Positions 1 to 61,544 of a stretch of 64,000 bases of DNA are shown here, piece after piece (within the stretch, counting starts at the first letter, position 1; the number at the start of each line of letters is the position of its first letter). The position numbers and the translations under genes were made by a program. Source of the stretch: a virus; the IMG/VR virus record IMGVR_UViG_3300000976_000011, positions 1 to 64,000 of that record. One strand, given 5' to 3'. The notes under the pieces were generated by a model. That model did not search any database and was not told where the DNA came from. It worked only from the letters and a program-made list of their open reading frames with translations.

Positions 1-86
1 CTAAATTGGCTATAGAGGATTATGATAAAATACATGAAAACATTCTATTTAGAAATTTAAAAAATAAAATAGGATCTTGTTTACAA

Positions 87-374
87 CTATAAAAGAATAA
101 CAAATTTTCCTGTATATGTAGAATTAATTGCTATATGGGGTTCTTCAAATCCTAAGAACCCTTCAGGAGAAACTGTTGTATGAGAAGGATGTAAAGACCA
201 ATGATCCCATTTTTCTCCACTTTTAAAATGAAAGTATAAGTTTTGATCTTCCATTGTGGAACCAGATGAAACTTTATCTATAATACATTCAGCGGACATT
301 CCCATATCCATATTGATAATAGTTTTACCTACAAAACTTTCCATATTGTCTACTAAGTCTTTAAAGTTCTTCAT
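87..374 (-). CDS. hypothetical protein
   Basis: ORF with SD-like AGGT, co-oriented with neighbours. Confidence 0.65.
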   Translation of the reverse strand: MKNFKDLVDNMESFVGKTIINMDMGMSAECIIDKVSSGSTMEDQNLYFHFKSGEKWDHWSLHPSHTTVSPEGFLGFEEPHIAINSTYTGKFVILL

Positions 375-437
375 TTTCTACCTTTTTATATGGTGGCATC
401 GCGATACAGTTGTTTGTTTTCCTCAATGGCGTAAATA

Positions 438-647
438 TTAGTCATATGCAAATACCAAAACATCTATAAATTCATAGTTACTTTCACCTAAAAGATTTTT
501 AATTGTTGATTCTAAAGGAAACCACACAACATCTCTAACTTTTGGACAAGGAACATAACCTAAATTTATTGTATGGCCTATGGATGGCACACTTTGTGAT
601 TCAACAATTTTAGATGAGCCAAACGAATCAATAATCAAAATTTTCAT
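438..647 (-). CDS. hypothetical protein
   Basis: ATGA overlap with upstream ORF. Confidence 0.65.
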   Translation of the reverse strand: MKILIIDSFGSSKIVESQSVPSIGHTINLGYVPCPKVRDVVWFPLESTIKNLLGESNYEFIDVLVFAYD

Positions 648-892
648 AATATTTCCTTAGGGTCATTTGACCAACTTATTTCTATACTTGTTTTTCCAAA
701 TTTTTTAACATTATATCCTAAAGATTTCAATCGAAAAACTATTGGATCTCTAAATTCTTGACAATTATTAAATATTGCTCTAAAATTCTTATTACTAGCT
801 TCTATAACAATTTTATCTTCTATAGTTTTCATTATATCATCTATAGTTTTGCCTCTTGTAGACATATTAAATGCTTTTATTGCTGATAACAT
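644..892 (-). CDS. hypothetical protein
   Basis: Tightly packed ORF in minus-strand operon. Confidence 0.65.
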   Translation of the reverse strand: MLSAIKAFNMSTRGKTIDDIMKTIEDKIVIEASNKNFRAIFNNCQEFRDPIVFRLKSLGYNVKKFGKTSIEISWSNDPKEIL

Positions 893-895
893 AAT

Positions 896-1507
896 TTAAT
901 CCTTCGGTTTAAAAACTACATGTTTTCCAATTACGCCAATCTTTTTAATATTAGAGTAATGTGTGTTTGTAAATTTAGTCTTTTTATCATTTTTATGATA
1001 ATATAGAGCACCCTCTGATAAATCTTTTTCCTGTTTATGTATAATATCATAAGCTATTTCAAGGGAGTTATACCAGGATTCTTTATCATGAACAGAATCC
1101 GACTTACCGTCATTAATCCAGCTAAATTGGGCCGTCTTGCCTTTCTTTTGATAAATGACCTCACAATATGTATTAGGAAAATTCTCGCTGGCAACACGAT
1201 TCTTTGAAACAAATCCGACCATCATTTTACCAAATAGAGTTTCACCTCTAGCTTCATGATAAATGTTTAGTGCCAAACAATCTAAATCAACTAGTTCTTC
1301 TCTAGTTAGATGCACTTTAGTTGGAACAAATGATTCCTTATATACGATTTTATCCTTAAATATCTCTTTAGTTGGTACTTCCTTACTAAATTGGACATAA
1401 AGAACAACTAAGCAATTTAATATTATTGCTATAGAGGCTGCTCTAAATATTTTAAAACGAGCAAGCATCTTAGCATCTATTACTATAGGTTCATTTATAG
1501 TAGACAT
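896..1507 (-). CDS. SleB/Hydrolase_2-family cell wall hydrolase with N-terminal membrane segment
   Basis: CLALNIYHEARGE, NRV..FPNTYCEVIYQ, QFSW, GALYYH, IGKHVVF motifs; start moved to ATG at 1507 behind GGAG. Confidence 0.9.
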   Translation of the reverse strand: MSTINEPIVIDAKMLARFKIFRAASIAIILNCLVVLYVQFSKEVPTKEIFKDKIVYKESFVPTKVHLTREELVDLDCLALNIYHEARGETLFGKMMVGFVSKNRVASENFPNTYCEVIYQKKGKTAQFSWINDGKSDSVHDKESWYNSLEIAYDIIHKQEKDLSEGALYYHKNDKKTKFTNTHYSNIKKIGVIGKHVVFKPKD

Positions 1508-1508
1508 A

Positions 1509-1754
1509 TTAGACTCCTGGATTAAAACAGTGCTTGACAAATATATCAAATTGTCTATCACAAAATTTAAACCACTTTTGTACAATCCAACAACCATCAG
1601 CATCTAATTTTAAAGCTGCTTTAGGAAACCATAATAGATCTCCCTTTAAATTAAAACAGAGCGCTTTCTCGCTCTCTTTTTCAATCTTTTCAGGTTGTAA
1701 GAATGTTAACAAATTTTGATTTGATGATAATTCTTGAAATTGAATTGTTTCCAT
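1509..1754 (-). CDS. hypothetical protein (ESEKA...LWFPKA family)
   Basis: ORF directly behind an early promoter, with AGGA SD. Confidence 0.7.
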   Translation of the reverse strand: METIQFQELSSNQNLLTFLQPEKIEKESEKALCFNLKGDLLWFPKAALKLDADGCWIVQKWFKFCDRQFDIFVKHCFNPGV

Positions 1755-1770
1755 AATGTAAGTTCCTATA

Positions 1771-1815
1771 TTTAACTGATAGGAGTATTATATAACAAAA
1801 ATATCATAATGTAAA
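1771..1815 (-). promoter_or_regulatory. sigma70-type early promoter
   Basis: TTTACA-17 nt-TATAAT followed by ATCAGTTAAA. Confidence 0.8.
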
Positions 1816-1821
1816 ATTTAA

Positions 1822-1895
1822 TGGAGCAGCCTACGAGAATCGAACTCGTTTCTCTTGGGTGGAAGCCAAGGGCACAGCCATTATACCAAGGCTGC
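1822..1895 (-). tRNA. tRNA-Gly(TCC)
   Basis: Cloverleaf; anticodon loop CTTCCAC; T loop TTCGATT; encoded CCA. Confidence 0.95.
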
Positions 1896-1908
1896 TCATA
1901 TTATATAA

Positions 1909-2109
1909 CTATTTATATCTTTGATTATATTCATCCCAATTACATGAAATTCCGCCGCTACGATGACCAGAGAATACAATACATTTTACACCATCAACTT
2001 CAATAGTCTTATAATGTTTACCTTGAGAAATACTTTTAACATTTGCTGGTTTATCATAAGAGCATGATGTTAAACACAATAAAATAAAGCTATAAAATAA
2101 AATTTTCAT
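1909..2109 (-). CDS. small lipoprotein-like protein
   Basis: Hydrophobic N-terminus with LTSC lipobox; GGISCNW motif. Confidence 0.65.
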   Translation of the reverse strand: MKILFYSFILLCLTSCSYDKPANVKSISQGKHYKTIEVDGVKCIVFSGHRSGGISCNWDEYNQRYK

Positions 2110-2110
2110 A

Positions 2111-2296
2111 TTAAATTGGATTAGCAAACCATGAAGCTAGCGCAGGAGTTTTCACTTTTTCTTTCATACCCATTGACCAAGATAAATCAGCTCTAGCCTC
2201 TCTTATAGCTTCTTCCTCAGTTTCAGCTCTATATACACCAAAGAACTCTCCATCTTGACTATTTCTAGGCACATATCCTACTTCATATTTGTTCAT
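2111..2296 (-). CDS. hypothetical protein
   Basis: Packed ORF. Confidence 0.55.
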   Translation of the reverse strand: MNKYEVGYVPRNSQDGEFFGVYRAETEEEAIREARADLSWSMGMKEKVKTPALASWFANPI

Positions 2297-2495
2297 TTAC
2301 AAATACCTGGGCAATATGATCCTTAAATTCTGGACAAGAAGGCCATGGAACAAATGTATTATCTATAGCATAACCTCTAGAGAACACTTTTTCCTTACAA
2401 TATAACCAACCACCATGTACTCGTAAAATATTAATGGATCCGATTTTTAAAGATTCGCCAATTTTTAACTTTTCTAATTTCTTTTTAATTTTCAT
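2283..2495 (-). CDS. hypothetical protein
   Basis: TAATG overlap; LRVHGGWLY motif. Confidence 0.6.
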   Translation of the reverse strand: MKIKKKLEKLKIGESLKIGSINILRVHGGWLYCKEKVFSRGYAIDNTFVPWPSCPEFKDHIAQVFVNEQI

Positions 2496-3061
2496 TATGT
2501 TTTCCTAGGTAAAATCCACGGTAACATTCTCGCAGTATTATATGCATCATCGTAACCATTATGTTGACGACCTTCAAATTCTAGGCGACATTTATTCATA
2601 GCTTTTTTGACTCCCATTTTTCTTTTAATACCTTGAGCATTCTTAAATAACATACTTAGATTCAAATAATCTAAATTATTAAAAGGATATAAGTGAGACA
2701 ATTTCCTTAATTTTAAGTTATCAACAAAGAATCTTTTATCGAAAGCTCCCCATGCTGCCCAATTATATTGACCTTTATACTTTTTCAGATCTTTATTTAG
2801 TTTATTACAAAATTCTCCCATGGGTATAGCCTTTTCAGCTAGAATCTCGTCGGTTATACCTGTAAGCTCTTCGCAAAAATAAGTCATTTTTGGATGTATA
2901 ACAGGTTGAACGTAATAATCAAAACCATCAACAATAGAATAATCTTCCATATTAACCATGACTGCGCCAAACTGGATCATTTCCATTTCATGTCTAGGAA
3001 ATTCGTTTGAGTTGGTACACGTAGCTTCGATGTCTGCAACTAATAAGTATCTTTTTGACAT
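2495..3061 (-). CDS. DEDDh 3'-5' exonuclease (ERI1/KapD-like)
   Basis: DIEATC, EMIQFGAV, WGAFD, GRQHNGYDDAYNT. Confidence 0.9.
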   Translation of the reverse strand: MSKRYLLVADIEATCTNSNEFPRHEMEMIQFGAVMVNMEDYSIVDGFDYYVQPVIHPKMTYFCEELTGITDEILAEKAIPMGEFCNKLNKDLKKYKGQYNWAAWGAFDKRFFVDNLKLRKLSHLYPFNNLDYLNLSMLFKNAQGIKRKMGVKKAMNKCRLEFEGRQHNGYDDAYNTARMLPWILPRKT

Positions 3062-3065
3062 TTTT

Positions 3066-3272
3066 TATAAATATAAATAAAGGGTTAAAATAATGATTCA
3101 ATACGGCTATATCTATATAACAACTAATTTAATAAATGGAAAGCATTAACGGCGACGAAAAGGTCCATACAAAATGAAATCTTACAAATTATCTCCTTAT
3201 TTGAAAACTTTAGATGAAAATGTTATAGGAAAAACCTATAAAGATATAGGCTTTAGTTTCTTAACTTTATAG
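3066..3272 (+). pseudogene. internally deleted GIY-YIG homing endonuclease remnant with late promoter
   Basis: TATAAATA; ATG3093 gives MIQYGYIYITTNLINGKH*, then a fragment SPYLKTLDENVIGKTYKDIGFSF matching the C-termini of the intact endonucleases. Confidence 0.8.
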
Positions 3273-3536
3273 GTTTTTCCAAGTATAAACAGAATTACCT
3301 GTTTTAAAGATTACTTCATTGCCATTATCTTCTAAAATTTCACTTACTGGAGTAGTCAGCCACCAATCTTGAGCTGAATAAGTTCTAGCTAAAAAAGAAC
3401 CAACTCTCATTGATTGCCCAAGAATAGGTCTCGAATTATCAGTAATTATATGTTGACCATCTTCTTTCCATTCTATTGATTCTGACATTAATCCCGAATC
3501 GCCTGCTCCGTCTCCTGATCTTACTAAACTATACAT
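3267..3536 (-). CDS. hypothetical protein
   Basis: Packed ORF; conserved-looking WWLTTPVSEI..FKTGNSVY. Confidence 0.7.
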   Translation of the reverse strand: MYSLVRSGDGAGDSGLMSESIEWKEDGQHIITDNSRPILGQSMRVGSFLARTYSAQDWWLTTPVSEILEDNGNEVIFKTGNSVYTWKNL

Positions 3537-3909
3537 TTTTAAAATTCCAATTTAGGTTAAATAATTCTGCGCATGATTTTAACTGTTTAATTAAACAGTT
3601 AAAATATATAAATTTGTGTGATGAAGATGTGTCATGGCATTGTTGAAGCGAAACAATTAAAGATTCATGTACTTTAGATAACTTAAGTCTTTTAACTACT
3701 CCTGACCAACATATGCCGAAGGCATCTTCATCAACCAATTTAGCTTGTTCATCAGTTAAAAATATACCAGCCGCACAAGCTAAATTATCGCTGGTTCTAT
3801 AAAAACATCTTGTTCCTATATTGCTAGGTACTTTTTGTTTAATTAAATGAGAAGCAACAGCATCAAAGACTTCTTGTTCTGATATGTTGGTATAATCAAT
3901 TACATTCAT
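3529..3909 (-). CDS. hypothetical protein
   Basis: QEVFDAVASHL..CFYR..CAAG..LQQCHD, typical of a phage family. Confidence 0.75.
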   Translation of the reverse strand: MNVIDYTNISEQEVFDAVASHLIKQKVPSNIGTRCFYRTSDNLACAAGIFLTDEQAKLVDEDAFGICWSGVVKRLKLSKVHESLIVSLQQCHDTSSSHKFIYFNCLIKQLKSCAELFNLNWNFKNV

Positions 3910-4115
3910 AATATTTTTCTCGCTTGGCCTTTATCGCCGAATTGTAAACATAATGTTGATATGTCATCTATATCATTATTATAATAAACCATCCAAGGAT
4001 CTCTATCAGGCCTTTTCATATAAATTATTTTAGCTGTTTGGCCTGAAGGATGAACTATTGAGTCACCTTCAAATAATTCATTACCATTATAACATAAATA
4101 AGGAGACTTTTTCAT
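3906..4115 (-). CDS. hypothetical protein
   Basis: ATGA overlaps. Confidence 0.6.
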   Translation of the reverse strand: MKKSPYLCYNGNELFEGDSIVHPSGQTAKIIYMKRPDRDPWMVYYNNDIDDISTLCLQFGDKGQARKIL

Positions 4116-4336
4116 AATTTACATTTTTTTAACCATATGTCTAAAGATTCTCTATCATTTTCATTATAAATTTTAAATATTTTACAATCACTATTTTTCC
4201 AAAATTCTATTCTCATATATGGATCATATCTTTTAAACGGTAATTTATTATCTACAGCTTTTAGTAATTTTGTAATATCATCATATAAACCGATGTTTAT
4301 AGAATCTTCATAATATTCTTCTATTAATATAAACAT
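4112..4336 (-). CDS. hypothetical protein
   Basis: Start trimmed to exclude tRNA-His. Confidence 0.55.
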   Translation of the reverse strand: MFILIEEYYEDSINIGLYDDITKLLKAVDNKLPFKRYDPYMRIEFWKNSDCKIFKIYNENDRESLDIWLKKCKL

Positions 4337-4356
4337 AATTTTCTCATATTCAAATT

Positions 4357-4435
4357 TGGGGTGTATGACGGGAATCGAACCCGCATCATCCCGAGTCACA
4401 GTCGGGAGTCTTATTCCTATTAGACCACATACACC
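4357..4435 (-). tRNA. tRNA-His(GTG)
   Basis: Cloverleaf; G-1:C73; loop CTGTGAC; CCA. Confidence 0.95.
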
Positions 4436-4439
4436 ATAA

Positions 4440-4778
4440 TTAATTCCATAATGCGTTAAAATACTCGCCGAAATATTTAAGACCTCTGGATTTTCTTTCC
4501 CAATCGTAATTTACATAATCAATACTTCCATCGAAATCATCGATAACAAAAGAAAGACCGAAAATCATATCATTTAAAATTTCTTGCCATTTTTCTGGTG
4601 TATCACAAAAATCATCGCAAGGGAAACATCCTGGATCAATCGAAAATTCTTTAAGCCTTGGCAAAGTAAATTTAGCGATTGTATAATCTAAACTCCAGAG
4701 TTCTGTATCATCCCAGCCTCTAGTCCATCTTTGGTAAAAGTGTTTGATATCTCTTTTTATAATTGCGATACTTTTCAT
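4440..4778 (-). CDS. hypothetical protein
   Basis: ELWSLDYTIAKFTLPRL..W..IL.DMIF..GL.YFG.YF..LW phage family pattern. Confidence 0.8.
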   Translation of the reverse strand: MKSIAIIKRDIKHFYQRWTRGWDDTELWSLDYTIAKFTLPRLKEFSIDPGCFPCDDFCDTPEKWQEILNDMIFGLSFVIDDFDGSIDYVNYDWERKSRGLKYFGEYFNALWN

Positions 4779-4782
4779 ATAA

Positions 4783-5046
4783 TTAAGGTTTCTTTGCTAA
4801 TACTTGTATAGATTTAATAATCTCCGCGTTTAACTCATCTCTAATCTCTTGAACTATTGTCTTTTTAAACCATTTTTCTTGTTTAGAATAATGAACCTTA
4901 AACTTATGACTTAGATTTTGATATCGGCACCTTTCTTCCTCAGTTTTAGCTGTTGGGCTAGGAGGTCTAATAATTACTGGCTCATAACTCACTTTATGAG
5001 GATACATAAATTGTGCGTCATTAACTACTACAAAATCATCACTCAT
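4783..5046 (-). CDS. hypothetical protein
   Basis: ORF between tRNAs with AGGT SD. Confidence 0.6.
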   Translation of the reverse strand: MSDDFVVVNDAQFMYPHKVSYEPVIIRPPSPTAKTEEERCRYQNLSHKFKVHYSKQEKWFKKTIVQEIRDELNAEIIKSIQVLAKKP

Positions 5047-5062
5047 AATATACCTATTAAGT

Positions 5063-5149
5063 TGGCGGAAAGTAAAGGAATCGAACCCTCATCAGTTTCC
5101 CGATGGCGACGGTTTTCAAGACCGTTTGTCCCCATGGACGCTACCTTCC
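5063..5149 (-). tRNA. tRNA-Ser(TGA)
   Basis: Class II cloverleaf; loop CTTGAAA; long V arm; G73; CCA. Confidence 0.95.
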
Positions 5150-5151
5150 TT

Positions 5152-5328
5152 TTATTCTTTTATAACTCTTGCTATGGAATTAATAGTCGTAACAGCAATA
5201 GAGCTATCTTCTAATAACTGATCTTCGGACCACCTATAAGCTAAATCAATCATACCTTCTATTCTTCTGAGTTTGTCTTTATTAATAGATGCCTCTAAAT
5301 CACTAGTATCGAAATCTTCAATTGCCAT
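5152..5328 (-). CDS. small hypothetical protein (58 aa, MAIEDFDTSD...)
   Basis: Open frame filling the gap between two tRNAs. Confidence 0.55.
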   Translation of the reverse strand: MAIEDFDTSDLEASINKDKLRRIEGMIDLAYRWSEDQLLEDSSIAVTTINSIARVIKE

Positions 5329-5343
5329 AATCTCTTTTAATGT

Positions 5344-5432
5344 TGGAGGAAGAGTTGATATTCGAAATCAATCCCATAAATGAGACACTTGGTTTAGCAA
5401 ACCAGCCCTGAGACCTCTCAGGTTACTCTTCC
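5344..5432 (-). tRNA. tRNA-Ser(GCT)
   Basis: Class II cloverleaf; loop TTGCTAA; CCA. Confidence 0.92.
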
Positions 5433-5441
5433 TTATTACTA

Positions 5442-6047
5442 TTATTTTGTAGTTTTCCAGTATCCAAGTGTATCAAATACTAATTTTAATTCAGATTTAA
5501 ATTCTTCTTGTAAATCGACGATCACAGATTGTATTCTATCATTACTTTCTAGAAAATCTCTTAATTCTAATTTACTGCTTAATGAAGATTTTTTAATTTC
5601 ACCTATATCATTAGTATATTTAAATTTTATTTTATCAATTTTAAGAATTTTTTTACATAGCTTATAAACAGATGAAAAATCATTTAAGCGCTTGTTACCG
5701 TAATAAGTATCTACAGGATCATTTTCTCTTAATACTACCTTTGTTATTTTTACGTTTTTTAATGATCCATAATCTATAGATAAATCTAAAGATTCTAAAC
5801 GATCTGATAACATATTATGAAATTTCGATAAAATATCTATGTAGGTTGGAACACCTTCTTCATTTGAAAGTCTGATTATTTCATCTTCCAAAGATTTGAT
5901 TTTAACTTTTTTTGGATAGTCACAATATCCACTACCCGTCTCAACTTTTCGATAGAAACCTTTATCAAATTTATAGAATACACCTTTAGGTAGACTCTTT
6001 TTAATACTTTTTTCTAAAGCTTTCTTATCTGATTTAAAGAAAAACAT
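5442..6047 (-). CDS. hypothetical protein
   Basis: 201-aa ORF with GAGG SD. Confidence 0.7.
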   Translation of the reverse strand: MFFFKSDKKALEKSIKKSLPKGVFYKFDKGFYRKVETGSGYCDYPKKVKIKSLEDEIIRLSNEEGVPTYIDILSKFHNMLSDRLESLDLSIDYGSLKNVKITKVVLRENDPVDTYYGNKRLNDFSSVYKLCKKILKIDKIKFKYTNDIGEIKKSSLSSKLELRDFLESNDRIQSVIVDLQEEFKSELKLVFDTLGYWKTTK

Positions 6048-6102
6048 TTTTATATCCTCTTAATTTTACATAACCAAACTATAATATAATAGATACTAAC
6101 TA

Positions 6103-7284
6103 TTATCCCTTAATACACATTACTTGTTTTAAAGTATGAACGACTTCAACTAAATCATCTTGTGCTTCCATAACTTTATCAATATCTTTATAGGCTGATG
6201 GTGTCTCATCAATAACATCGTAATCTATTCGACATTCAACACCTTCTACAGATTTCTTATGTTCAGACATACTAACTAATTTCTTAGCTTTAGATCTAGA
6301 CATAACTCTTCCAGCTCCATGCGAACACGAATTAAAAGATTCTTTATTGCCTAAACCTCTTACAATAAATGATTTGGCACCCATAGAACCAGGAATAATT
6401 CCCAATTGACCTTCTTTAGCACTTACAGCGCCTTTACGGGTCACCCAAACATTTTCTTTGTAGTGATTTTCTTTTTCTACATAGTTATGATGACAGTCGA
6501 TGGCATGTTGTTCCCATCTAAAATCTTTAGTATGCTTATGTAAAATATCTAAAGCTTTAGTCATCATAATATCTCTATTAAATTTGGCAAATGTCTGAGC
6601 CCAATCAATAGATCTAATATAGTCATCGAAGTGTTTAGATCCTTCTGGTAAATAAGAAAGATCTTCATCTGGAATATTACAAAACCAGCGCTTCATTTCT
6701 TCTTTCGCCTTAGAGATAAAATATCTACCAATAGCGTTACCAACTCCTCTAGAACCAGAGTGTAGCATAACCCAGACGAAGTCTTTTTCATCTAAACAAA
6801 TTTCAACAAAGTGATTACCGCCACCTAAAGTACCTAAATGTTTAACATTATTAGTATCTTTAATAGGAGCTATCTCACAAAGTTCATCAAATTCTTTTGC
6901 TAGATAATCTGACCAAATCTTTTCAGTTCCGCCATCTAGTTTATCATGTTTTCCAAAGCCTACTGGAATAACAGCTTCCATACCTAATCTAATATTCTTT
7001 AGATCATCAGGAAGATCTTTTGCCTTTAATGATGTTTTAACAGCCTGCATTCCACAACCTAAGTCAACACCTACCGTAGCTGGAATAATAGCTTTCTTAG
7101 TAGCTAAAACTGTTCCAATTGCGCATCCTTTTCCTAAGTGAGCATCTGGCATCGAAGCAATCCACTTATGGATGAATGGCATACTGGCTAAATTATTTAA
7201 TTGATCTAGGGTGTTATCGTCAATATGAACACCTTCATGCCAAGTTTTAATTGAAGCCTGATTGCCTTTATTTATTGCTTTCAT
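6103..7284 (-). CDS. rtcB: RtcB RNA 3'-phosphate/5'-OH ligase
   Basis: MPDAH, GVDLGCGM, GTLGGGNHFVE, HSGSRG, HHNY, TRKGA, PGSMG, SHGAGR, DETPSAYK. Confidence 0.97.
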   Translation of the reverse strand: MKAINKGNQASIKTWHEGVHIDDNTLDQLNNLASMPFIHKWIASMPDAHLGKGCAIGTVLATKKAIIPATVGVDLGCGMQAVKTSLKAKDLPDDLKNIRLGMEAVIPVGFGKHDKLDGGTEKIWSDYLAKEFDELCEIAPIKDTNNVKHLGTLGGGNHFVEICLDEKDFVWVMLHSGSRGVGNAIGRYFISKAKEEMKRWFCNIPDEDLSYLPEGSKHFDDYIRSIDWAQTFAKFNRDIMMTKALDILHKHTKDFRWEQHAIDCHHNYVEKENHYKENVWVTRKGAVSAKEGQLGIIPGSMGAKSFIVRGLGNKESFNSCSHGAGRVMSRSKAKKLVSMSEHKKSVEGVECRIDYDVIDETPSAYKDIDKVMEAQDDLVEVVHTLKQVMCIKG

Positions 7285-7310
7285 TATAAAATTCCTATTA
7301 AATTGTTTGG

Positions 7311-7402
7311 TGGTGTTCCTACTAGGATTCGAACCTAGACTACTCCCTAATCTGGGGATACGATCTTATAAAAATCGGGTGCTGCCGTTACACTATAGGA
7401 AC
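7311..7402 (-). tRNA. tRNA-Ile(TAT) with long variable arm
   Basis: Acceptor GTTCCTA/TAGGAAC; anticodon arm CGATT-TTTATAA-GATCG; extra arm TCCC-CAGATTA-GGGA; canonical T arm; CCA. Confidence 0.85.
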
Positions 7403-7780
7403 TTATTTTCTTTTTCTTAGGTTGGAAGTTCCTGTTGTATGACCTCCAACCCTCTGTTTATTTTTAGCTTCTTCTAATCCATATTTTTCTACAGATCTTT
7501 CCCAAATAGTTTTAAATGTACCAAATTTTTTACCATCTTCTACAGTATTCTCTCTATATGTCGCCCAATAAAGATGCTTAGGGTTTGAACAATTGCCATT
7601 GCCACAAGCATGAGCCAAAACTGCAGGCCTTTTAGGAATATTGGTGTCTAAATATTCAGCTAAAACTCCTCTGTGATGCGTACTTAGGCCGCCTCGCTCT
7701 AAACAAACTTCTGAAAGATCTATATGAGATTGCCTTTCTTTCTTAGTATGGCTTTTTATATATTCTTCTACTATTATCAT
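7403..7780 (-). CDS. HNH (His-Me finger) endonuclease-like protein inside tRNA cluster
   Basis: LAHACGNGNCSNPKHLYWATYRENTVED motif; start trimmed to exclude tRNA-Leu. Confidence 0.8.
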   Translation of the reverse strand: MIIVEEYIKSHTKKERQSHIDLSEVCLERGGLSTHHRGVLAEYLDTNIPKRPAVLAHACGNGNCSNPKHLYWATYRENTVEDGKKFGTFKTIWERSVEKYGLEEAKNKQRVGGHTTGTSNLRKRK

Positions 7781-7792
7781 TTGTATATAATT

Positions 7793-7869
7793 TGGTAGCG
7801 CCACCCGGATTCGAACCGGGAACATTCGGGTTTTAAGCCCGACACCTCTGCCAATTGGATCATGGCGCC
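7793..7869 (-). tRNA. tRNA-Leu(TAA), short variable loop
   Basis: Cloverleaf; loop CTTAAAA; A73; CCA. Confidence 0.9.
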
Positions 7870-7875
7870 ATATAT

Positions 7876-7915
7876 TGGGGTCCTAGGAGGCGATCGACCT
7901 CTTTCAACTAGTACC
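7876..7915 (-). ncRNA. minihelix tRNA-like RNA (acceptor plus T-like arm, CCA)
   Basis: GGTACTAG/CTAGGACC stem, GAGG-TCGATCG-CCTC arm, ends in CCA. Confidence 0.55.
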
Positions 7916-7920
7916 ATATT

Positions 7921-8004
7921 TAAATAATGTGGTAGGATTTGAACCTACACTAGAATTACTTGATAGTTATCTACCCTTGCTCTGCCTCACAAGACTGCAC
8001 ATTA
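7921..8004 (-). ncRNA. degenerate tRNA-like element
   Basis: TAATGTG/CACATTA acceptor and GTAGG-TTCAAAT-CCTAC T arm; no clear anticodon, no CCA. Confidence 0.55.
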
Positions 8005-8008
8005 ATTC

Positions 8009-8085
8009 TGGAAGCACAAGTAGGATTCGAACCTAACAACCTACGCAGTCAAAGTGCGTTGCTCTACCAGTTGAGCTATTGTGCT
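8009..8085 (-). tRNA. tRNA-Gln(TTG)
   Basis: Cloverleaf; loop CTTTGAC; CCA. Confidence 0.92.
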
Positions 8086-8092
8086 AAAAATT

Positions 8093-8338
8093 TTATAAAT
8101 TCTTAATTGCTTCTTTAATAGCAATTCTTGCTGATTTTTCACATTTGTTAGGATTCCAACCTGAAGAAGCAACATCATGATATGACATATATTTGCGACC
8201 ACCCGGAGTACCGTCGAAACTTATTGATTCTCTCTTTTCTTTAGACTTAACAAACCAAATATATAAATTGTTAACGGTTTTTAATAAAGAAACTTTATGA
8301 CCAGATTCTTCAAAATTTGCTATTAAAGTGTTTGACAT
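8093..8338 (-). CDS. hypothetical protein
   Basis: ORF behind early promoter, AGGT SD. Confidence 0.7.
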   Translation of the reverse strand: MSNTLIANFEESGHKVSLLKTVNNLYIWFVKSKEKRESISFDGTPGGRKYMSYHDVASSGWNPNKCEKSARIAIKEAIKNL

Positions 8339-8355
8339 TTTGTAATACCTATTAA

Positions 8356-8400
8356 TTTAACTGATAAGTTATTATAATCAATTAAATGATATTTGTAAAC
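8356..8400 (-). promoter_or_regulatory. sigma70-type early promoter
   Basis: GTTTACA-17 nt-TATAAT followed by ATCAGTTAAA. Confidence 0.85.
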
Positions 8401-8410
8401 ATCTAAAATC

Positions 8411-8440
8411 AAAAAAAGCCTACTAATTTAGTAGGCTTTT
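8411..8440 (-). terminator. intrinsic terminator of left attenuator
   Basis: AAAAGCCTACTA-AAT-TAGTAGGC followed by T7. Confidence 0.9.
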
Positions 8441-8474
8441 AAAAAGATATTTGCTATACTTATTACTAATCTAA

Positions 8475-8543
8475 TTAAAACCCCTCGATTCCTGAACTTA
8501 TTTGTCCATGCTGAGATAATAACGATTGTAATATGTTTTTCAT
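8475..8543 (-). CDS. putative attenuator leader peptide MKNILQSLLSQHGQISSGIEGF (left tRNA cluster)
   Basis: ATG 5 nt after TATAAATA; codons 4-18 all cognate to the downstream tRNAs; followed by terminator. Confidence 0.8.
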   Translation of the reverse strand: MKNILQSLLSQHGQISSGIEGF

Positions 8544-8548
8544 ATATC

Positions 8549-8556
8549 TATTTATA
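8549..8556 (-). promoter_or_regulatory. T4-type late promoter
   Basis: TATAAATA; TATAAATAGATATATG is identical to 57897-57912. Confidence 0.85.
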
Positions 8557-8938
8557 AAGACTTAATTTTAATCTGATATAACTCACCATCTGATAGATCG
8601 ACAGTTACTATGCTATCTTTGGCATTTCTATATGTAATACAAATAATAGGTTCTTTACATCTGTAAGTTGTCCATGTAGCGCTAGGAACATAATCTCCCA
8701 TACCAATATATTTTATATAACCTTGAAATCCAAAATAAGTTATCGCATCACCTACTTTAAAGTGACCGAATTTTTCTTTATGCTTCTCTAATTTTTCTTT
8801 ATGACAGTCAAATTCTTCATTTTGTGCGTAAGCATCAATTAGTTTGCGTTCCCACTCTCTATCATAGTTTGCGTTCATCTTTAATGCTTCAGCATGCTGA
8901 TCACACATATTAATAACTTTAGTTTTTTTCCACCACAT
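8552..8938 (-). CDS. hypothetical protein
   Basis: Packed ORF; resembles 9302..9643. Confidence 0.7.
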   Translation of the reverse strand: MWWKKTKVINMCDQHAEALKMNANYDREWERKLIDAYAQNEEFDCHKEKLEKHKEKFGHFKVGDAITYFGFQGYIKYIGMGDYVPSATWTTYRCKEPIICITYRNAKDSIVTVDLSDGELYQIKIKSL

Positions 8939-9312
8939 TATATTACCTCCGATTTCTCTACAGTTTCAATAACATCATATTTAATTGTTACTTTCTTTTG
9001 AATATTGAGACTAAAGTAATCCCAATACTTTATTACAAACTCTGGGGTGATCCGTATATCGCAATGTTGTGATATTACATTATAAAACTCGTCAGGATTG
9101 GTCCAGGGTTGAACATTATCGTGATATTCATCATACATAAATTCACAATACTCAATAAAATTATCCATTTTATCTACAAAATACTGATCAGTAACAGTGC
9201 AATTTTTGTAAATTAACCAGAATTTAAATGGCATGCCTCCTACTCTAGAAGCTTCAAAGCATTCATTATCAGACTTTACTTCACTTGGATTAAAATTTAA
9301 TTTAATTTCCAT
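8938..9312 (-). CDS. hypothetical protein
   Basis: Packed ORF. Confidence 0.7.
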   Translation of the reverse strand: MEIKLNFNPSEVKSDNECFEASRVGGMPFKFWLIYKNCTVTDQYFVDKMDNFIEYCEFMYDEYHDNVQPWTNPDEFYNVISQHCDIRITPEFVIKYWDYFSLNIQKKVTIKYDVIETVEKSEVI

Positions 9313-9643
9313 TATATGCCTCTTGGATTACACACATAGATTCAATATAAAAAGTTTGATGAGTTATAGAACCATCAGTTTTCATCCAACATAATTCCAT
9401 TTCAGGTCTATGCATCTCATCAAAATAAGGATCTTTACAGTTTGATGCATCATAATTACCTCTTTCAATATTTAGAATATATGCCTTTTTATCAAATAAT
9501 ATTACTTCTTCAGATATTAAAAAATTAGCATATAGATCTTCAAATAGTTCAGTTTCTTCTTTAAATTGATCATAGATTCTATTAACATTTAATGCTAATT
9601 GATGATCTTTATTAAATAACTTTTTCTTAGAATTAAACATCAT
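9302..9643 (-). CDS. hypothetical protein
   Basis: Packed ORF, GGAG SD. Confidence 0.7.
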   Translation of the reverse strand: MMFNSKKKLFNKDHQLALNVNRIYDQFKEETELFEDLYANFLISEEVILFDKKAYILNIERGNYDASNCKDPYFDEMHRPEMELCWMKTDGSITHQTFYIESMCVIQEAYNGN

Positions 9644-15635: not shown

Positions 15636-15667
15636 TTTCTTCTCCTATTATTCATATAAATATTTCC

Positions 15668-57698: not shown

Positions 57699-57714
57699 AT
57701 TTTGATATTATAAT

Positions 57715-57789
57715 GCGGAGAAGTATTGGTTATACAAACTGAAGATTAATATTTCAGTTATCAGGTTCGATTCCTAGGCTCCGTGAACA
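57715..57789 (+). ncRNA. degenerate tRNA-like element
   Basis: GCGGAG/CTCCGT, D-like arm, 8-bp central stem, GGTTCGATTCC; no CCA. Confidence 0.55.
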
Positions 57790-57830
57790 TTTGTGAGTTA
57801 ATAGGCAAGGTTATAATATTAAATTTTTCT

Positions 57831-57889
57831 GATTAATTAGGTTCAAATTTGATTAAGAACCAACTGAGGTCACCTAATTAGTCTTTTTT
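57831..57889 (+). terminator. terminator-like stem with large loop
   Basis: GATTAATTAGGT/ACCTAATTAGTC followed by T6. Confidence 0.5.
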
Positions 57890-57896
57890 AAAGTTT

Positions 57897-57904
57897 TATA
57901 AATA
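57897..57904 (+). promoter_or_regulatory. T4-type late promoter
   Basis: TATAAATA. Confidence 0.85.
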
Positions 57905-57909
57905 GATAT

Positions 57910-58014
57910 ATGAATTATACAAATACAATCAGACCGACGAATATCGCTACTAAAGAACTGACAGTAGTGGAATATCGCGCGAATCCTATCTTTGATAAGG
58001 AGTCTGGAAGTTAA
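57910..58014 (+). CDS. putative attenuator leader peptide MNYTNTIRPTNIATKELTVVEYRANPIFDKESGS (right tRNA cluster)
   Basis: Leaderless position; codons 2-31 all cognate to downstream tRNAs; stop codon overlaps antiterminator. Confidence 0.85.
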   Translation: MNYTNTIRPTNIATKELTVVEYRANPIFDKESGS

Positions 58015-58072
58015 GTAGGTAAATACAATAGTATTTTAAGAGCCTACTTATTAATTTAAGTAGGCTTTTTTT
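58012..58072 (+). terminator. mutually exclusive antiterminator (58012-58050) and terminator (58041-58072)
   Basis: TAAGTAGGT pairs with GCCTACTTA; terminator AGCCTACTTA/TAAGTAGGCT followed by T run. Confidence 0.88.
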
Positions 58073-59278: not shown

Positions 59279-59368
59279 GCGTAGACTGAGCATTGGCGAG
59301 CTCAAGTGGCTGTAACCCACCCGCATATAAATAAGTCTGTATAGGTTCAACTCCTATTCTGCGCACCA
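59279..59368 (+). tRNA. tRNA-Tyr(GTA)
   Basis: Class II; CTGTAAC; CCA. Confidence 0.92.
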
Positions 59369-61458: not shown

Positions 61459-61544
61459 ACCCTTTGTTCCTGACATCGGTCTTCTAAACCGATCCTTTAA
61501 TGTTAGGTGGTAAGTGTGAGGTTCGATTCCTCCAGAGGGTGCCA
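61459..61544 (+). tRNA. non-canonical tRNA-Arg(TCT)-like RNA with rearranged D region
   Basis: Acceptor ACCCTTT(G)/(C)AGAGGGT, TCGGT-CTTCTAA-ACCGA arm, T loop TTCGATT, G73, CCA. Confidence 0.75.

Follow-up and report, generated by a model that had tools for sequence, protein, structure and literature searches.

A 22-codon open reading frame (ORF) that stands in front of a tRNA gene cluster in the genome of a T4-like phage contains 15 consecutive codons that are all read by the seven tRNAs encoded behind it, and a twin ORF in front of the second tRNA cluster is built from the complementary codon set. Chance falls far short of explaining this codon match, which is specific to the way in which the tRNA genes are divided between left and right. 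In predicted folds, moreover, the ORF, its stop codon, an alternative pairing and a terminator have the geometry of a leader-peptide attenuator. We therefore propose, as the probable though by no means assured reading, that the left cassette serves as a ribosome-mediated (leader-peptide) transcription attenuator and controls the entry of late transcription into a unit of tRNA genes and rtcB. Its output would be regulatory and, as modelled here, would include a response to the supply of tRNA.

The phage genome is a single contig of 141,675 bp (141.7 kb) with a GC content of ~30%. The window analysed here is the stretch of 64,000 nucleotides that begins the contig, and coordinates refer to it unless the genome or another locus is named. 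The DNA polymerase is ~37% identical to gp43 of cyanophages and other T4-like phages; with the closest isolate just 37% identical by this protein, there is therefore no orthologous leader to compare. A DNA search of the phage collection for such a leader gave matches at the level of the tRNAs only, and no relatives of the 128-aa protein encoded upstream of the cassette were found in viral contigs. Only one sequencing run has matching DNA, an algal metagenome (DNA), and no RNA run is listed. The late sigma factor gp55 was not found among eight ORFs at 13.4–21 kb.

The left leader and the tRNA genes behind it

The left cassette lies on the minus strand and has the following elements, in the order of transcription.

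8549–8556, minus strand: late promoter box of the T4 type, TATAAATA, assigned by sequence match
8475–8543, minus strand: leader ORF of 22 codons, predicted to be leaderless, with a TAA stop at 8477–8475
8490–8534, minus strand: putative sensing run, codons 4–18 of the ORF, all from the 14 codons of the seven downstream tRNAs
8411–8440, minus strand: intrinsic terminator with a perfect 12-bp stem, a 3-nt loop and a T-run (−14.1 kcal/mol)
8371–8399, minus strand: early promoter of the sigma-70 type, TTTACA-17-TATAAT, matching the consensus at 11 of 12 positions

The stop codon of the 128-aa ORF upstream (8552–8938) lies inside the box, from which the ATG at 8543 is separated by a spacer of exactly 5 nt. 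The 16-mer formed by box, spacer and ATG, which an earlier note on this DNA had reported as the identical opening of two leader ORFs, was counted in the whole genome and occurs there in exactly two copies, at 8541–8556(−) and 57897–57912(+). The same note had placed a related terminator after the left ORF and an early sigma-70 promoter just beyond it, and both were recovered at the positions listed. The hairpin follows the stop codon after a spacer of 37 nt and is the sole strong minus-strand terminator within positions 1–9500; its stem core is common to the left and right leaders and is present nowhere else in the genome.

How the ORF would be translated is suggested by the position of its start codon. 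There is no Shine-Dalgarno sequence in front of it. In T4, the late box extends from −13 to −6, counted from the transcription start (PMC1524935), and on this basis the first transcribed nucleotide is predicted to fall on the A of the ATG at 8543. An ATG exactly 5 nt past the box is found at 12 of the 51 TATAAATA boxes in the genome, as against 0–2 at each of the other offsets (0 to 12), and the count rises to 14 when relaxed boxes are admitted. Since eight such starts open long ORFs (63–276 aa), which include several homing endonucleases of the HNH or GIY-YIG type, leaderless late mRNAs would be a normal mode of expression in this phage, and judging from these sequences its late mRNAs appear to be systematically leaderless. 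We infer that the left transcript starts at 8543 and that the 22-codon ORF is translated. By the same reasoning, a translatable AUG would be carried only by RNA begun at the left late promoter, and not by RNA that reads through from upstream. Within the window, the box-N5-ATG arrangement is seen, for example, at 15655(+), 23698(+), 8556(−) and 57897(+).

Past the terminator, the minus strand continues with the sigma-70 promoter, an 81-aa ORF and then tRNA genes mixed with ORFs as far as tRNA-Gly (1822). The interior of this stretch contains no strong minus-strand terminator.

1822–8338, minus strand: proposed gated unit (tRNAs, rtcB and other ORFs), the co-oriented stretch beyond the left terminator
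8093–8338, minus strand: 81-aa ORF
8009–8085, minus strand: tRNA-Gln-TTG (ARAGORN and Rfam)
7925–8004, minus strand: tRNA-like element with a 7-bp acceptor stem, a good T arm and a poor anticodon arm
7793–7869, minus strand: tRNA-Leu-TAA (ARAGORN and Rfam)
7403–7792, minus strand: HNH endonuclease ORF
7311–7402, minus strand: tRNA-Ile-TAT (ARAGORN and Rfam)
6103–7284, minus strand: rtcB, encoding the RNA-repair ligase RtcB
5344–5432, minus strand: atypical tRNA-Ser-GCT-like gene (cloverleaf fold; relaxed ARAGORN)
5063–5149, minus strand: tRNA-Ser-TGA (ARAGORN and Rfam)
4357–4434, minus strand: tRNA-His-GTG (ARAGORN and Rfam)
2495–3061, minus strand: RNase T-like ORF
1822–1895, minus strand: tRNA-Gly-TCC (ARAGORN and Rfam)

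The presence of rtcB in the unit, noticed earlier from the letters alone, is thus borne out, and so are six of the seven tRNAs said to lie downstream, each called by both ARAGORN and Rfam. The seventh, Ser-GCT, is a genuine but atypical gene. Its acceptor stem has 7 bp, its anticodon loop reads TT-GCT-AA, the variable arm is long, the T arm is standard and the sequence ends in CCA; the D arm is made of a 6-bp stem and a 4-nt loop. Neither ARAGORN at default settings nor the Rfam tRNA model detects the gene, and under relaxed settings ARAGORN reports a tRNA at this position. The window indeed holds no tRNA for Cys or Trp, as had been stated; both exist outside it, at genome positions 65118 and 72441. 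Outside the window, a search in front of the tRNAs for Met, Cys and Trp found no further leaders.

Several smaller features of these genes may be recorded here. The tRNA-Gly gene is preceded directly by a late promoter of its own, with a TATAAATA box at 1910–1917(−), and another such box lies inside the variable arm of tRNA-Tyr, at 59326–59333(+). The tRNA-Ile-TAT gene (7311–7402) has a long variable arm of 5 bp and a total length of 92 nt, which is unusual for an Ile tRNA. The element at 7925–8004, between tRNA-Gln and tRNA-Leu, is read as Ile(gat) by relaxed ARAGORN and may be a pseudo-tRNA or an unusual tRNA.

Codon match and the twin leader

Codon usage in 177 long ORFs (38,359 codons) served as the reference. 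If ordinary wobble is allowed and U34 of the Ser tRNA is taken to read the U-ending codon too, the seven left tRNAs read 14 codons (the left set), which account for 22.3% of genome usage. Codons 4–18 of the leader are drawn wholly from this set, as had been claimed with a slightly larger estimate of its size. When all six frames of the whole genome were scanned, with no requirement for an ORF, this run of 15 proved to be the longest left-set run, the next being 9 and 8, and the number of runs dropped about four-fold with each added codon. Comparison with genome codon usage, which the earlier note had named as a check on its claim, makes the run significant, with a naive probability of 1.7 × 10−10 per site. 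With Ser-GCT left out, the run is 12 codons long and the next-best 7. Under strict wobble, 14 of the 15 codons qualify and the leader is still the unique genome maximum, the next independent site reaching 12. Each left tRNA is sampled by 1–3 codons only, and the coverage of all seven in 15 draws is unremarkable when taken alone (P = 0.25). The codons of the ORF that do not belong to the left set are found at its ends only, at positions 2–3 and 19, 20 and 22.

The second copy of the 16-mer opens a leader in front of the right tRNA cluster.

57897–58072, plus strand: twin leader before the right tRNA cluster; its promoter and terminator modules are those of the left leader, and its ORF has 34 codons

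When the two cassettes are aligned, their promoter and terminator modules are identical and the ORFs between them (22 and 34 codons) are wholly different, so that the left and right peptides share no sequence past the start. Codons 2–31 of the right ORF all come from the complementary (right) codon set. This set makes up 70% of usage, and its longest run in the genome again lies in a leader, namely the twin at 57897 (34 codons with in-frame flanks, 30 inside the ORF after the ATG; the next runs are 30 and 25). All 14 of its own tRNA species are covered (P = 0.04), and the synonymous codons used are unusually rare (P = 0.002). The two leaders do therefore partition codon space in the way the clusters do, as proposed before, each holding the longest run of its own set in the genome. 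The reported opposition in synonymous choice is also found: Ile is ATA and Leu is TTA in the left leader, whereas Ile is ATC and Leu is CTG in the right one, CTG making up just 0.18% of genome codon usage. Given the peptides, the probability that all synonymous choices fall within the leader's own set is 0.0058 for the left and 0.028 for the right. That these choices fit the partition with the peptides held fixed argues against a purely peptide-level cause of the match.

For the right leader, one assignment, that of the AGA codon, rests on an unusual tRNA-like gene at 61459–61544(+), whose anticodon was read as TCT by eye. The acceptor stem, T arm and CCA end of this gene are normal, but its D arm is almost absent and it has a long extra arm; relaxed ARAGORN reads an anticodon other than TCT (Arg). 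Just upstream of the right promoter, at 57714–57861(+), lie one or two degenerate tRNA-like elements, which relaxed ARAGORN reads as Leu(taa) and Lys(ttt).

Predicted folding, the proposed switch and its alternatives

The full left leader folds with a z-score of −4.2, the terminator contributing −14.1 kcal/mol. Besides the terminator, two pairings that both involve the stop-codon region are predicted.

8458–8536, minus strand: helix 1:2, formed by codons 3–10 with the stop-codon region and the 20 nt behind it
8433–8484, minus strand: candidate antiterminator 2:3, in which the stop-codon region pairs with an A-run and the base of the terminator 5′ arm

Helix 1:2, calculated with the terminator left out, has an energy of −15.5 kcal/mol and a z-score of −2.9, equalled by 4 of 200 shuffles. 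In the folding model it is the default state of an RNA that carries no ribosome, and it qualifies as an anti-antiterminator.

The antiterminator was assessed by folding nascent RNA (RNAfold) before the 3′ arm of the terminator is made, with ~30 nt masked for the ribosome. In the predicted structure 2:3 (−10.7 kcal/mol), a G-run and a U-run that span the stop codon form base pairs with the A-run and the terminator base, and a 4-bp AGAU/AUCU helix adds support. It is predicted as long as the codon in the ribosomal A site is one of codons 1–16, and is gone at codons 17–23. Nascent folding thus returns the very pairing, AGAT/ATCT extension included, that had been proposed from the letters; the pairing is, however, no better than that of shuffled spacers, which matched it in 120 of 1500 cases by energy and in 694 of 1500 by pairing. 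It sequesters the base of the terminator only, and by these calculations it is the weakest link in the case for an attenuator. When the RNA with a masked ribosome is folded to equilibrium, the terminator forms at every ribosome position (P = 0.97). Since the terminator always wins at equilibrium, any switch must be kinetic, as in classical attenuators. The non-left codons 19, 20 and 22 sit where the ribosome would block the antiterminator anyway.

The twin leader gives a different picture of this element. There, an 8-nt copy of the terminator 3′ arm lies over the stop codon and is predicted to pair with the 5′ arm, with a probability of 0.88 while codons 1–30 are in the A site; the pairing is lost at codons 31–35. 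This antiterminator is beyond chance, being matched by 15 of 1500 shuffles. Codons 32–34, which are the sole left-set codons of the right ORF, sit in the zone that the ribosome masks. In the left leader, the stretch past the stop codon holds a partial copy of the 3′ arm where the right one holds the 8-nt copy.

We envisage the following sequence of events. Late RNA polymerase would start at the A of the ATG, 6 nt past the TATAAATA box, and make a leaderless transcript, on whose 5′ AUG a ribosome would load and go on to read 15 successive codons that need exactly the seven downstream tRNA species. If decoding were fast throughout, the ribosome would reach the last codons and the stop and cover the stop-codon region; the 12-bp terminator would then form, and an RNA of ~135 nt would be released. 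If decoding were slow at even one of these codons, because its tRNA was scarce, uncharged or damaged, the ribosome would stall upstream and region 1 would stay open. The free stop-codon region could then pair with the base of the terminator, and the polymerase would read on into the tRNAs, rtcB and the other ORFs. On RNA without a ribosome, such as upstream read-through RNA, which has no Shine-Dalgarno sequence ahead of the ATG, codons 3–10 would pair with the stop region and termination would be the default. Early in infection, the sigma-70 promoter behind the terminator would bypass the switch. The twin at 57897 would act likewise on the second tRNA cluster, its codons being those of the complementary set. 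Control by the left leader would be partial, because the early promoter bypasses the switch and because tRNA-Gly has its own late promoter.

What the switch might be for is a more tentative matter. The two sensor ORFs may constitute a response to tRNA depletion or tRNA damage, that is, a sense-and-repair circuit against tRNA-targeting defence, a suggestion we consider possible rather than probable. Together, the leaders would sample 21 phage tRNA species (7 left, 14 right). Such tRNAs might be lost through host anticodon nucleases, through host tRNA decay after shut-off, or through starvation. A stall on the affected leader only would open late transcription of the replacement tRNAs, and the left leader would also open that of the RtcB ligase, which is able to reseal cleaved tRNAs.

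Three other readings of the cassette have to be weighed against the attenuator. First, the ORF might be translated and codon-matched and yet have an output other than antitermination at the hairpin, with the ~135-nt RNA or the ribosome occupancy acting, for example, via RNA stability, processing or a trans-acting small RNA; or the left copy might be a decaying duplicate of a functional right switch. The weakness of the left antiterminator speaks for this reading, as does the partial 3′-arm copy that the left leader has in place of the 8-nt copy from which the right antiterminator is formed. We nevertheless think it unlikely. The left codon run is cleaner than the right one, which is unexpected for a decaying copy, and both helix 1:2 and the positions of the foreign-set codons fit the geometry of attenuation.

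Second, the element might be nothing but an operon boundary, with the hairpin closing the early operon that lies upstream (the nrd region), the sigma-70 promoter opening the next one, the late promoter and the short ORF as an incidental spacer between them, and the codon match as a product of chance. The terminator does follow immediately on a block of co-oriented genes, with a strong early promoter directly behind it, and the left antiterminator is not above chance. Against this stand the left run, which is the genome maximum by a wide margin, and the twin, which holds the maximum for the complementary set; the fit of the synonymous choices to the partition; the modules that the two cassettes share and that are unique to them; and the analogous leaders of other phages described below. 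We regard a boundary alone as improbable, and a role as boundary is in any case compatible with an attenuator and no replacement for it.

Third, the cassette might be a small late gene with a terminator of its own, whose product is a functional peptide of 22 residues with a composition that matches the tRNA set by chance. This reading would agree with the presence of a promoter, a start codon and a terminator and with a peptide that looks like an ordinary amphipathic sequence, but it is very improbable, since it cannot explain why ATA and not ATT, TTA and not CTN, and GGA and not GGT are used (P = 0.0058), nor the mirror-image behaviour of the twin leader, and the two peptides have no common sequence past the start.

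Relation to known attenuators and to leaders of other phages

The attenuator that we propose for the left cassette follows a logic known for amino-acid operons, which we have not found described for tRNA genes: full-text literature searches turned up no published account of leader-peptide control of phage tRNA genes. The attenuators trpL, hisL, leuL, pheL, thrL and ilvL likewise consist of a short ORF with regulatory codons and a stop codon by alternative pairings, followed by a terminator. The spacing from stop codon to terminator in trpL is similar to that of the left leader, and the multivalent ilvL and thrL sample several amino acids, as the left leader would.

Several differences are apparent. 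First, the enterobacterial attenuators control biosynthetic enzymes, whereas the genes that would be regulated here are those of tRNAs and RtcB. Second, the codons are chosen per tRNA species (ATA versus ATC, TTA versus CTG), as opposed to per amino acid in the amino-acid operons. Third, hisL and pheL present one species in tandem, and the left leader seven species, 1–3 times each. Fourth, the left leader mRNA is predicted to be leaderless and to come from a T4-type late promoter, unlike that of the enterobacterial attenuators. The enterobacterial leaders show no match to the left leader in sequence or Rfam family; an Rfam search of the left cassette gave only a chance-level Phe_leader match on the hairpin (E = 0.98).

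Two other systems bear on translation components. The pheST operon of E. coli (pheM) is under a leader-peptide attenuator that senses the decoding of the cognate codon; what it controls is the synthetase for one amino acid, whereas the left element would control tRNAs themselves, and several at once. T-box riboswitches likewise couple the status of tRNA to read-through into translation-related genes. A T-box binds the uncharged tRNA directly and needs neither a ribosome nor an ORF. The left cassette has no T-box match in Rfam, even at E ≤ 1.

Phage tRNA genes are usually treated as constitutive helpers of codon usage or as spares against tRNA-cleaving defences. If our proposal is right, phages regulate their tRNA supply on demand, by ribosome feedback on the transcription of tRNAs and RtcB, and the codon list of a leader is a direct readout of the tRNAs that a phage treats as one functional set. 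The oldest paradigm of attenuation would then widen from the sensing of amino acids to that of tRNA species. The paired complementary leaders in one genome amount to a natural swap experiment, and the leaderless design would keep the system compact enough to be tested in a cell-free setting.

Searches for exact copies of the 16-mer and of the terminator returned mostly unrelated phages, as the 16-mer is a common late-promoter head, with locus L170/L255 as the one useful yield. Analogues were also sought in rtcB-anchored loci of other phages. A complete phage contig of 198.8 kb (G001), unrelated to the phage studied here, has an rtcB that is 69% identical and a leader at L257:12–99(+), in the same place as L253:6782–6872(−), with a TATAAATA box, 5 nt, an ATG and an ORF of 24 codons. 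Codons 2–17 of this leader are nearly all for Lys, Leu, Glu and His, and the three exceptions match tRNAs further along the cluster. Behind it come a terminator and then tRNAs for His, Glu, Leu-TAG, Lys, Glu, Leu-CAA and Leu-TAA, and rtcB lies further on. A strong antiterminator is predicted, with the last codons of the leader as its 5′ strand, and it no longer forms when the A site has moved beyond codon 15.

A second phage contig, of 170.6 kb (G002, locus L255), has two units of short ORF and terminator in front of tRNA blocks. One of them, at L255:7146–7310(+) with its leader at 7146–7259, contains two Trp codons and many codons for Thr, Ala, Asn and Val, and precedes tRNAs for Ala, Asn, Trp, Thr and Val. 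In the other, at L255:13484–13680(+), the leader ends in a run of Thr and Ser codons and is followed by tRNAs for Ser, Ser, Thr, Ser and Cys. The stem core of its terminator is the same as in the phage studied here, and an 11-nt copy of the 3′ arm lies right past the stop codon.

Of the arrangements of short ORF, terminator and tRNA block in rtcB-linked loci, 6 of 12 match their own block more closely than they match 90% or more of the foreign blocks; about one such case would be expected. An unanchored census of 13 tRNA block starts in rtcB-linked loci, in which the best-scoring short ORF in the 450 nt ahead of each start was taken, showed no signal overall (median rank 0.43), at low power and with a search distance that misses the left leader itself. 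With no signal in the unanchored test, the design would thus be recurrent but not universal. On a further contig, of 345.6 kb, a 34-codon ORF with four ATA codons, followed by a terminator, stands directly before a tRNA-Ile(TAT) gene at about L275:12192–12300(+).
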